Shown here: in pieces, positions 4,641 through 58,699 of the stretch | Position numbering within the stretch: the stretch's first letter is position 1 | Layout: each line of letters opens with the position of its first letter | Assembly: GCA_964016885.1 (NCBI GenBank) | Contig: OZ024741.1 | Location: 386,756,001 to 386,820,000 of the forward strand | Origin: Eledone cirrhosa | Taxonomy: Eukaryota | DNA: 64,000 nucleotides | Direction: 5' to 3' | The notes under the pieces: generated by a model | The model's database searches: none | Seen by the model: the letters and a program-made list of their open reading frames with translations, nothing else | Told to the model about the DNA's origin: nothing | Made by a program: the position numbers and the translations under genes

Positions 4641-5222
4641 TATATATATTATATATATATATATATATATATATATATATATATATATATATATATATAT
4701 ATATATATATATATATATATATATAGTACTGTATAGTACTCTTTGATTTCCTTGTCAATTTGGAAAAGTATATCCTACATGGCTGTGGCGAAGCCGTTGG
4801 CATGTACCTTGGATAATGATTACATAACCTCTCAACAGTTTTCACGTCAAGGTGTTGGCTTATTGCCCAGTTATCATAGTAGTCACCTCGATCGTGTTTG
4901 TGAATATACTTACACTTGGCAAGGACCTGTCAGTCGGATATCATTTTGTCAATAGTCTCATTGTACTGATTACATAGTCTGCTCTCGACGTTAGAAGTTT
5001 TTTGTTGCTGCTCTTTTTTTCCATTGTATTATTTTTGTAATTATTTGCGGTATTAAATCTTATGCAGCTAAAATCAGATCTTATTCTACTTTTAGCCCAG
5101 AGCTTCAGATTCATTGTTGCCTTTTACTTCTTTTTCTCCTTCTTCTTATTATTATTATTATTATTATTATTATTATTATTATTATTATTATTATTATTAT
5201 TATTATTATTATTATTATTATT

Positions 5223-6398
5223 GTTCTTTGAGTCTCAGTCATTGATGTTAGTTAACTGGAAAGTTTGTTGAAATGAATATCAAGCCACTACCTGCAGCCT
5301 CAGATATTCAGGACGTATCGGAGGGTTCTTGCTGTTCCCAGCAAGCATGCCTTTTGAAGTGTTCCAAAACGCGGGGTGGGGCCAATTTTCTTTAACCATC
5401 GCTGGAAACCTTTTGAGATAGTCCCTAGTGCGCCTATGACAATCGGGACCACTTTGATTTCATGGCAGTTCCAAATCCTTTTTACCTCCCACTTTAAGTC
5501 CTGGTATCGGTTAATTTTCTCCCTCTCCTTCTCTTGCACTCTCGTGTCGAATGGGCAGGCCACATCCACAATCAGGCACGATCTTTTTTCTTTGTCCAAA
5601 CCCACCAGGTCAGGTCTATTGTGTTCCAGTTTCTTGTCCGTCTGTATCCTAAAATCCCATAGCACCTTCACCTGATCGTTTTCTATCACCGACTTTGGCT
5701 TATGCTCATACCACTTCTCAGAGTGTGGTAAATTGTTTACTTTGCATAGGTGCCAGTGGATCACCCTGCCCATCACATCATGTCTCCAGCCTTTATAGTG
5801 GGTCTGGGCTAGGTGTTTACACTCGGATACAATGCGAACCACAGTCTCCTCTCTCTCTCCACAGATCCTGCACAGTGGGCTAGCCTCCTCCTTGTAAATA
5901 TGGTGTTTCAGCCACTTCGTTTTGAGGGCCTGCTCTTGCGCAGCCATTAGCATTCCTTCTGTAGCCTTTTTAAGGTCTCCTCTTCTCAACCAGGTTGCTC
6001 TTTCTCCTTGTTGTTATTTCCTCCTTGGACATGCCCTGGTCTATTGTCCTCTCCATAAGTACAATTCTGAGCATTGGCTCCTTACTATCGGTCACGTATT
6101 TGTGTAGGTTGTTTTTCTCCATCTGAACACAATCCTCTATGCTGATAAGACCTCTTCCACCTTCAGATTTCCTTAAGTAGAGTCTATCGACATCACTCCT
6201 CTTGTGGAACATGTTGTAGATAGTCAATAGCTTCCTAGTCTTCCTATCCATTTATTTTTGTTCAGCAACATTCCATTTCAGAATTTCCGCACTGTACCTA
6301 ATAATAGACATAGCTCGGGAATTTACTGCACTTATGGCATTCCTACTGTTCAGATGTGACTTTAATACACTCCTTACTCTCCGAATGTATTCAGATCT
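5223..6398 (-). mobile_element. R4/Dong-like non-LTR retrotransposon, 3' part (RT thumb, CCHC, RLE endonuclease), disrupted
   Basis: DRKTRKLL..DVDRLYL..GGRGL, CRICGEREETVVRIVSEC, RH, HNRPDL..IVDVACPFD..K..Y. The 3' end runs into (TAA)n at 5145-5222. Confidence 0.9.
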
Positions 6399-6553
6399 TG
6401 GACGCCATGCTTTCCAGCATAGTTACGTCCCTTTACGATCTGAGTTCAAATCCCGCCGAGGTTGACTTTGCCTTTCATCCTTACGGGGTCGATAAAATAA
6501 AGTACCAGTAATGCACTGGATAATTGCTGGCCTTGTGTCTAAAGTAGAAACAA
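6399..6553 (+). mobile_element. tRNA-derived SINE. Further copies near 2145(-), 24985, 28564, 29040, 29206, 29440(-), 31010, 38630, 38850, 41280, 41500, 46587(-)
   Basis: B-box GAGTTCAAATCCC plus central block GACTTTGCCTTTCATCCTTACGGGGTCGATAAAATAAAGTACCAG recurs more than ten times. From memory the block resembles the Meta/MESC SINE domain. Confidence 0.8.
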
Positions 6554-6615
6554 TTATTATTATTATTATTATTATTATTATTATTATTATTATTATTATT
6601 ATTATTATTATTATT

Positions 6616-56143: not shown

Positions 56144-56422
56144 TATGAAATTAGGCTGGCTAGAAAGCAAGCGAAAAAGGAATTCTGGAGGAATCTGAGA
56201 GTGCGAAGTTATAAAATTAAAAAGTTAATAAATTGAGATTAAAAAATGTAAAAAGTAATAAATAAAAATAATAATAATATTAAAAAATTAAATAGTAAAA
56301 ATATTTATTACTTTTTTAATTTTTTAATCTCAATTTATTAACTTTTTAATTTTATAACTTCGCACTCTCAGATTCCTCCAGAATTCCTTTTTCGCTTGCT
56401 TTCTAGCCAGCCTAATTTCATA
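56144..56422. repeat. Inverted repeat, arms about 120 bp, AT-rich spacer
   Basis: TATGAAATTAGGCTGGCTAGAAAGC... and its reverse complement ending ...GCCTAATTTCATA. Confidence 0.9.
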
Positions 56423-56846
56423 GCAGTGTCCATTCTATTCGATAAGCTTCGCTCAGTTTTATCTGTTTATATTCAAATACGACCTTAATTTTCGAGATAA
56501 AATGTCCTCAGCAGAAGTCAAAAACCTTGGAAAATAGAGAAAACGTTTTAGCTTGTATGCGCTAACTTTTCTTTCTGTTTATGCCGTTACTAGTTCGAAG
56601 TGGTAGTAGGAGGTTTGAGAAGTGTTAATTATCATCATCATCATCATGATAATTGCTTCACTTTATCAGCTGATAGCAGTCCAATTATTCCTACTCTTAA
56701 GAACATTTGGTGATTTACAAGGTCTTACACCAAATATGACAGACAAAACTCACCTTCTAAACAGGATTGTTTTTTGTAGTACTTTATGGACGTTGAATGT
56801 TTCTCAAAAAAAAAAAGAAACAGAGAGAGAGAAATGTGTATATAGA

Positions 56847-57353
56847 TAGATATGTTCCTTTATTAGCCACAGGGGCACAAAAGAAGGGGCAAATACAAAG
56901 GGGGAAGTTTACATATAATAAAAACGTGTAAAATATTATCACAAATGCAATTTAAAAATTAGTCGATTTTCCCCAATAGGAGGAGACATTACATATGGGT
57001 AACACATACCCCCGGAAAAAAATGTGCAACCCTCATCTCCAGGAGTACGAAGAGCTTGTACTCCTTTCCTCTCCTCCTCTTTTTCCTCAACCTACAGGCT
57101 GATATAGAGAGAAGGCCCATTCACTCGGGCCATTCTCGCCACTTTCACCCACCTTTCATAAAACTTGCTGGGGTATAGCACCTCTCTCTCCATCCTGATT
57201 CTTCTTCCAAAGTGGTATTTGAAAAAAAGGACCAGTTGTTGGCCGGAGAGAAAGGTGTCTGACATCAGCCCTTTTAACCTTGTCCACCATACAACCTCTT
57301 CCGCCATAGCTATCAAACAAAGGAAAACCGCCTCTCCTTCGTTTTTGAAGGAG
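56847..57353 (-). mobile_element. Solitary 5'-truncated Tx1 copy, GATA-associated subfamily
   Basis: Same 3'UTR as the copies at 47951 and 54194; GATA repeats at both junctions. Confidence 0.9.
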
Positions 57354-58699
57354 GGATAGATAGATAGATGGGGAGGTAGGTATGCAGGTAAGTAAGTAGG
57401 TACATAGATAGGCAGGTAGGTAGATAAATAGAAAGATAGACAGATAGATAAATGGATATATCCATAGACACACATAGATAAATAGATGGATGGAAAGATA
57501 AATATATACAAGAGGTAGGTATATATGCGTATTTTTCGTGTTTTGTGTGTAAGGAATAATTTTGGGCATGAGCGAAAAGAAAAAGAGCCAGAAAGGTTAG
57601 TTTGAATACCTCAATTGGGATATGTTCAACAACACTAACACCTACATACAATCTCTTCCAAAACAAAAACTAGTTCGAATGCCAGTGGCACCTTTCCTAG
57701 TGTGGTAAATAACACGGGATCTTTGAACATGAATCTTTTCCCAGGGAAAGAATCAGTGTTGTTATAAAATACAGTGTTATTTTAAGAGCAAGCGGGAGAC
57801 AAAATGTTTATCTGTGTCTCTTATAAAAATAGGTGGATGGGTGGGGCAAGCACTCTCAAAAGAACAGCTAGAAGAAGCGCTTTCAGATGTGTAGGGAAAA
57901 ACTGTATCCTTTGAACAAGGCAGAACCAACGAGACCGACTGCGTCGTCTTTTAAACAGAACATATGATTTTAAAACAGACTGCGATTTTAGGGAACATAC
58001 CCGCCCATATATTTGTCTCCTAGGATTTGGGGCAGAAAAATACAATATTAACTGTTATAGGCACCTATAACGATGTTTACGTTTGGTTTATAATCAGCTT
58101 TGTGTCGTAATATGGGCAGAGAGTGAGTGCAGAGGTGATAAGAAACAATACGTGCTTAGGAGGAGTAAGAATAAACTTGCAAGTTTTATACCACAGGGCC
58201 ATACTGATGCTGTGCTTTATGGGTGCATAAACGAAGGGCATAAGACTCGTGATGCAAGAACTTGTTGCTACACGTGCAGATGTGCCGGTGATGGTGGTGG
58301 TGGCGAAGGTGATGGTGTGGGTGGTGAATGTGGTTGAGGGAGGGTGATACGTGCACGTGTGGTGGTCGGTGTGGTAATGTTACTTGGTAAGTTGTAATAG
58401 GTTGAAAAGGTGCGAGTAGTTGGGGCGTAGTGGTGGGGGTTCAGTGAGTATTGGTTAATGTTGCCTAGCTGTGTGTGTACGAGGTCAGCTACACGCGCAT
58501 AGGTGGTCAGTGTATGTGTACGTGTGTGAGAGAGAGAGAGAGAGAGAGAGAGAGAGAGAGAGAGAGAGAGAGAGAGAGAGAGAGCGTGTTCATGTGCAGT
58601 TACGGAGATGTATTAGTGTATCAAATGCTAGTGTATGTGAGTGGATGTGCTGATAGAGGAGTTCGTGTGGCTTGTGTGTATGAGTGTGTGGGTGGAAGG

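Follow-up and report, generated by a model that had tools for sequence, protein, structure and literature searches.

Several lineages of long interspersed nuclear elements (LINEs) insert into microsatellites. Published targets include ACAY for Waldo, AC for Mino, the repeats used by Kibi and Koshi, and TAA for Dong, including in a snail (PMC3812793). In Anopheles gambiae, Waldo, Mino and Dong occupy three different repeats, so the use of several targets within one genome is already published (PMC3812793). Tx1 elements with such targets are Kibi at (TC)n, Koshi at (TTC)n and crocodilian Tx1 at (TTCC)n or (TTTC)n (PMC4494074), and microsatellite targets are also listed for Togen (TG) and for some HERO families (PMC4640811). 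Active Dong-R4, Tx1, RTE and Penelope families have been counted in Octopus vulgaris, with no discussion of their targets in the accessible text (PMC13282606), and the mechanism by which LINE endonucleases acquire or switch targets is not well understood (PMC3812793). Here we describe a 64,000-nucleotide stretch of the 3.0-Gb genome of Eledone cirrhosa (the window; G000:C2:386756001-386820000), in which Tx1, Dong-like, R4-type, RTE-type and Penelope-like elements lie in or beside microsatellites. A preliminary description had proposed one repeat motif per family, and this is supported by 3' ends and by 5'-truncation junctions against backgrounds of 0.2-1.7%. Targeting of one motif by one family is a known phenomenon that is strong here; the pairs of target and lineage are probably new. 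Tx1 at ATT or ATCT, R4 at CATA and RTE at TATG were not found in the literature searched, and may be annotated in Repbase or Dfam.

For 3' ends, we sampled the 30 best genomic matches each of the Tx1 group at ATT (Tx1-ATT), the Tx1 group at ATCT, or GATA (Tx1-ATCT), the Dong-like element, a non-coding element and Penelope, and all 21 genomic matches of an R4-type family at CATA (R4-CATA). The 5' ends of Tx1-ATT were taken from 30 genomic matches, and extended flanks from 60 copies. A junction was counted when a stretch of 10 bases, no more than a few bases away from it, matched the motif, one mismatch being allowed. Background came from 40 segments of 10 kb (400 kb) chosen by position, where 6,000 random draws gave 0.6% for ATT, 0.5% for AAT, 0.2% for ATCT, 1.7% each for ACAT and ATGT, and 6.9% for AT. 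The ATT and TAA arrays are a single microsatellite seen from opposite strands.

Under this rule, ATT adjoins 43/47 of the 3' ends and 6/11 of the truncated 5' ends of Tx1-ATT (excluding rows with a second type of open reading frame 1 (ORF1) and rows that were internally deleted or inverted), and all 30 full-length 5' ends follow ATT. For Tx1-ATCT, ATCT is present at 32/39 3' ends and 22/33 truncated 5' ends, two short divergent rows having been left out. Dong-like elements have AAT at 37/40 3' ends and 21/41 truncated 5' ends, or 21/28 without 13 rows that break at reference positions 468-484, where the reference copy has a gap. R4-CATA has CATA at 23 of 26 3' ends and 15 of 16 truncated 5' ends, the sole 5' miss being an inverted copy, and three full-length 5' ends each follow CATA; a second R4 family gives 9/9 and 7/8. 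Non-coding elements lie at ATGT in 38 of 49 3' ends (20 also or instead at AT) and 8 of 12 truncated 5' ends. Binomial p-values for enrichment of the family motif range from 1e-11 to 1e-50, and off-motif matches are nearly nil. Random 5' junctions, which the preliminary description had set against its own proposal, are not the pattern in Tx1-ATT, Tx1-ATCT, both R4 families at CATA, Dong and the non-coding elements, where these junctions are motif-exact. Because the motif stands at 3' ends and at 5' truncations alike, the repeats are targets and not merely tails.

Exact counts over the whole genome, made for 3' ends with a single Tx1 terminus pattern extended by 13 bases of repeat, gave 9,360 termini at ATT, 6,107 at ATCT, 19 at ATC and 2 at ATGT. 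The reversed pattern had no match in the genome. Only those two Tx1 termini adjoin ATGT, although this repeat exceeds ATCT in abundance about sevenfold.

The three plus-strand Tx1 copies of the window end in (ATT)n, as first described, and both long ones are also preceded by it. The copy at 6616..9359 carries a second 5'/ORF1 type and an ORF2 with an internal deletion, and lies between (ATT)21 and (ATT)6. The full-length copy at 9378..15404, flanked by (ATT)6 and (ATT)11, encodes a CCHC knuckle in ORF1 and an apurinic/apyrimidinic-type endonuclease (APE), reverse transcriptase (RT) and CCHC motif in ORF2, which is split by a frameshift near 13020-13044. A 97-bp 3' end at 26523..26619 (+) is followed by (ATT)19, and its 5' side is without an ATT array. 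The (ATT)21 array upstream of 6616 (6553..6615) doubles as the 3' flank of a short interspersed nuclear element (SINE) at 6400..6552 (+), whose terminus ...AGAAAC precedes ATT. This SINE is abundant, and duplications around copies elsewhere, read by eye, begin with ATTAT, which suggests that it is likely moved by Tx1-ATT enzymes. An old, decayed plus-strand Tx1 at 25593..26425 had been described as ending at (ATC)n. It has an ATT-type terminus followed by a mixture of ATC and ATT, and 29 relatives (72-88% identical over the query) share that terminus, with mixed ATT/ATC or decayed ends. A separate (ATC)n-specific Tx1 family was therefore rejected, since the relatives are of ATT type and 19 ends genome-wide abut perfect ATC.

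Two dissimilar-looking 5'/ORF1 modules are found on the common ORF2 of Tx1-ATT (window 6616-8800 and 9378-11640), with a join near element position 2264. Among 20 extended copies, 11 reach the 9378-type 5' end and five switch to the other type (loci L205, L216, L217, L218 and L219). Contigs from runs of three other organisms deeply cover the ORF2 at 11722-15033, and related Tx1 families are therefore present in relatives.

Seven minus-strand Tx1 copies were said to sit in (GATA)n. All seven termini are present (47957, 50667, 51699, 52635, 53025, 54201 and 56855), with one departure from the description: the 5'-truncated copy at 47950..50630, whose terminus is 47957, has a single TATCT followed by (TA)n, and a 20-bp duplication of TATCT plus (TA)n. 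Five truncated copies form a chain in GATA arrays at 50667..54391 (-), with a 16-bp duplication around 53025-54178, and another truncated copy at 56848..57354 (-) has GATA on both sides. Both ends are visible in 36 Tx1-ATCT copies; 23 of these have a duplication of at least 8 bases, which in nine is not a simple repeat. Seven duplications of 14-20 bp start with TATCT (five) or within ATAT (two), and directly adjoin the last bases of the element, without extra repeat units between. The occurrence of duplications at single motifs indicates that the target is a short motif, that arrays are dispensable, and that no long repeat tail is added.

Tx1-ATT and Tx1-ATCT are sister groups with a nearly identical 3' end, and their ORF2 products are 64% identical across the N-terminal 437 residues and 72% in the RT half. 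Near-intact Tx1-ATCT occurs in a locus chosen by position (L240), with an ORF2 of 1,150 amino acids. Pfam matches and motifs place a zinc knuckle in ORF1 and APE, RT and a C-terminal CCHC in ORF2, the best PDB matches of the APE domain are L1 endonuclease (L1-EN), and a sequence-specific target with target-site duplication (TSD), a Tx1 trait, is observed. None of 17 homologs carries a family name, and the Tx1 label is suggested by domains and targeting. Like Kibi, Koshi and the crocodilian Tx1 elements, these are Tx1-type APE LINEs of which related families use different microsatellites (PMC4494074); unlike them, they use ATT and ATCT, in an invertebrate host and in thousands of copies.

The Dong-like LINE at 5223..6399 (-), the 3' part of an element with a restriction-like endonuclease (RLE), ends at a (TTA)25 array (5146..5222), in agreement with the (TAA)n end described for it. 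Its 5' side is cut by the SINE, and its reading frame (5300-6013) contains the RHD and PD..D motifs; the CCHC histidine has been lost from this copy. The two R4-type families described in (CATA)n are a 5'-truncated element at 33754..35634 (+) and the 3' end of a second family at 45454..45856 (+), each with (CATA)n on both sides, and the family-wide samples confirm both junctions. These elements have the features of the R4 clade, namely a single ORF with RT followed by CCHC, RHD and PD..D, without APE; PDB matches of the RLE elements are R2 proteins. R2 and NeSL carry N-terminal C2H2 fingers; a pattern search found none in one Dong and one R4-CATA copy. Domain order and motifs thus suggest an R4/Dong assignment. 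In common with Dong, DongAg and DongBg, the Dong-like elements have a single ORF of RLE type, a TAA target and a mollusc host (PMC3812793); here, by contrast, at least three families are co-resident, and a related lineage (34% identical) lies in CATA. The TAA target of Dong is found in the AAT families and not in the CATA families. Waldo shares a CATA-type target (PMC3812793), although it is of APE type (R1 clade, by the title cited there), whereas the CATA elements of Eledone cirrhosa are RLE-type, with RTE on the other strand; membership in Waldo was rejected because the endonuclease on the CATA strand is RLE-type. The preliminary description knew of no published GATA- or CATA-specific families. 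For CATA, Waldo is such a case, and for GATA we found no Tx1 at ATCT in the literature searched.

Six non-coding elements were correctly located in CATA arrays, and their strand is opposite to that of R4, on TATG. They comprise full-length copies at 32965..33559, in (TATG)n, and 44787..45378, a different subfamily at 35643..35985, a 38-bp 3' end at 36509..36546 identical to that of an autonomous RTE, a copy with a short 5' end at 45881..46448, and one with a SINE inside (about 46577-46790) at 46515..47301. Truncated copies keep the left end, which means that the elements run on the minus strand, opposite the R4 copies. Their 5' UTR and final 38 bases match those of an RTE-type LINE at locus L233 (the 5' UTR at 84-89% in one subfamily and about 72% in another, the last 38 nucleotides at up to 100%), and their longest open frame is 103 amino acids, in two copies. 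By sequence comparison, they are internally deleted, bipartite non-autonomous RTEs, a known kind: Bov-A and RTE-N2_Lch likewise join the 5' UTR to the last ~40 nucleotides of an RTE (PMC5786205), and differ from the elements here, which prefer TATG/TA arrays at both junctions. For annotation, the consequence is an assignment to RTE and not to R4. R4 as their driver was rejected on the opposite strand and the RTE homology, a third Tx1 group at ATGT on the two Tx1 matches genome-wide, and a solo LTR (long terminal repeat) or miniature inverted-repeat transposable element (MITE) on the one-sided truncation. No Rfam match near the gathering score pointed to a ribozyme or RNA gene at their head, and alifold predicted one hairpin.

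The autonomous RTE in L233 encodes APE, RT and three C2H2 fingers. RTE-2_OV resembles it in these domains and in its microsatellite 3' UTR (PMC9115989), but identity is unsupported, because each of four RTE-2_OV primers matches the parent RTE with 3-6 mismatches. In 30 copies of this RTE, 25 termini were located, of which one probably belongs to a neighbour; the element closes with 1-3 CAT units that lead into ATGT (15 termini) or AT (8). At L233 4703-5284 (-), the RTE has three C2H2 fingers at its C terminus together with a 3' UTR rich in microsatellites, and such fingers could aid targeting of TATG.

Penelope was said to end at (AT)n, and its 3' ends do so in 20/20 sampled copies; plain 5' truncations, judged with one copy as reference, fail the junction test (2/10, p=0.15). 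Inverted ends, which are again 3' ends of the pseudo-LTR (pLTR), occur in nine of 20 copies and are at (AT)n in all nine, so that pLTRs and the tandem or inverted structure of Penelope-like elements are both found here. In the window, a 3' part lies at 3161..4638 (+) before (AT)n, and a copy at 17668..18650 (+) has an inverted pLTR piece, a putative GIY-YIG-type C terminus and a pLTR, with (AT)n on both sides. The motif VVY..C....C..YIGET was recognized by eye; Pfam gave a weak RT match only. Naiad, Neptune and Hydra elements show a (TA)n bias, (AT)n at pLTR ends and tandem or inverted structures (PMC8557442), and we saw no notable difference from published elements, plain 5' breaks here being mostly away from (AT)n. 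By eye, the pLTR includes a minimal hammerhead-like core (CTGAAGA..GAAA; 18461-18495) that was not among the Rfam matches listed. Also within (TA)n lies a palindromic element of ~170 bp (16112-16279, 17455-17648, 23663-23724, 55880-55944 and 59432-59523); it has an end resembling that of the pLTR, and may be MITE-like or Penelope-dependent.

Several families probably each insert into one motif and in one set orientation, and the likely mechanism is target-primed reverse transcription started at a nick for which the element's own endonuclease prefers that motif. Motif and orientation at both junctions, the 14-20-bp duplications of Tx1-ATCT, head-to-tail chains and nesting were all observed. The APE enzymes would nick AAT (Tx1-ATT), AGAT (Tx1-ATCT) and ACAT (RTE), and the RLE enzymes ATT (Dong) and ATGT (R4-CATA), with families that have different enzymes using the same arrays on opposite strands. 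Because duplications are also found at single motifs, the target of the APE families is likely a 5-base motif (ATTAT or TATCT) that arrays supply densely. Since each insertion leaves repeat on either side, it would supply a new target, and the chains would follow from this. Several points weigh against this reading. The sampled copies are the best-scoring and youngest matches, many are clustered, and some come from duplicated loci. Truncations of Tx1-ATT number only 11, plain Penelope 5' breaks are not enriched, and the autonomous RTE is looser, with 5' breaks at ATGT in 3/10 and AT at 8 of 25 termini. Nicking by L1-EN was unaffected by point mutations and is looser in vitro than integration, which points to a contribution from other factors (PMC1950540). 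Contigs of four public runs over 4730-15750 contained no empty site or joint across the elements, a result that is uninformative; because no empty site was seen, we infer the order of events.

The repeat at both junctions is equally predicted if the endonucleases are loosely specific and a read-through repeat tail of the RNA anneals to the same repeat once nicked. In its favour, a few bases are common to element ends and target, the 1-3 terminal CAT units of RTE run into TATG, Tx1-ATT is often full length and arranged in chains (13/30 after another Tx1 end), and nicking alone does not account for integration (PMC1950540). Such annealing is nonetheless unlikely to be what mainly sets the targets, since Tx1-ATCT sites outside arrays gained no extra repeat units, and the SINE and Tx1-ATT have the same target start while sharing only a few terminal bases. 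We give hardly any credence to the view that the elements themselves make the repeats, as mere tails or other products, or that elements simply survive within repeats. Tails would suit an RTE/SINE pair with (ATG)n and Penelope, in which the 20 3' ends and nine inverted ends adjoin (AT)n and plain 5' breaks are unenriched. Six other families, however, have motif-exact and strand-exact 5' junctions, and passive survival would not pair motif with family. The pair consists of an RTE-type LINE (L254 and L257) and a SINE (L223, L226, L237, L241 and L252) whose last 39 bases agree and which both carry an (ATG)n tail. The SINE served as a tail control: none of five readable copies, a small number examined by eye, has (ATG)n on the 5' side.

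Division of the repeat space, in the sense of exclusive ownership, is not supported. At least three Dong-like 3' ends are at AAT, two R4 families use ACAT, and Tx1-ATT and the SINE share ATT; CATA arrays are used by R4 and RTE on opposite strands, and AT by both Penelope and RTE-type elements. Of 30 Dong 3' arrays, five abut a Tx1-ATT end and four a SINE end, and full-length Tx1-ATT is preceded by another Tx1 end in 13 of 30 copies and by a Dong piece in seven; the tail-to-tail Tx1/Dong figure comes from 30 loci and is not genome-wide. The remaining split is by strand, with APE lineages on ATT, ATCT and ATGT, and RLE lineages on AAT and ACAT. Competition that gave each motif one owner family would fit the use of each of these strands by one lineage among the families examined, but it is largely refuted and very improbable: Dong-like ends share AAT, R4 families share ACAT, arrays are co-occupied, and AT is common to Penelope and RTE-type elements. 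Targets are also not scarce, for most sampled arrays touch no listed 3' end (by a rough pattern count in the 400-kb sample, 6/30 do at ATT, 6/30 at ACAT and 2/4 at ATCT). Competition is not shown; enzyme chemistry would yield the same table of motifs. As for the suggestion that TSDs lengthen the repeats, the 14-20-bp duplications agree with it, and each adds one to four units while the array is split; alone they are too short for arrays of 19-25 units. Arrays of that length require slippage too.

Returning to preference for a motif by the element's own endonuclease, we would expect the APE domain, possibly through its beta-hairpin loop, to account for the difference between ATT and ATCT. The hairpin reads TNRIGSSRS in ATT copies and (S/T)N(R/H)SG(T/R)SRS in three ATCT copies, and the loop, before the SYLD motif, aligns with the grafted hairpin of L1-EN chimeras 2V0R and 2V0S. 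Work on L1-EN found that specificity changes when an entire loop is grafted but not upon point mutation, with further factors also playing a part (Repanas 2007, PMC1950540). The loop may therefore be taken as a lead to the cause of the switch, not as a result. A bolder reading, which we hold to be possible but somewhat unlikely, has strand-resolved niches (ATT, AAT, ATCT, ACAT and ATGT) with one endonuclease lineage each, undescribed Tx1 targets at ATT and ATCT switched by a few residues of the APE hairpin, a zinc-finger RTE homing to TATG, and the elements as main source of ATCT arrays in the host. If it is true, the young, near-intact sister pair of Tx1 groups is a natural experiment on change of target by a LINE endonuclease. 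With sister groups 64-72% identical, thousands of copies and hardly any cross-over between ATT and ATCT, target switching becomes testable. The findings also bear on the abundance of tri- and tetranucleotide repeats in the host genome.

A further RTE family is present at 43521-44745 (-) and in loci L059, L067, L152, L161 and L232. It ends before TA(G)A/(TA)n, some of its 5' breaks are in (TA)n, and the window copy includes an internal 80-bp tandem array. The elements of the window lie around exons of a likely gene for an UNC-93-like membrane protein (15462-15734, which is open, and about 26754-26985; weak match, E=0.026).

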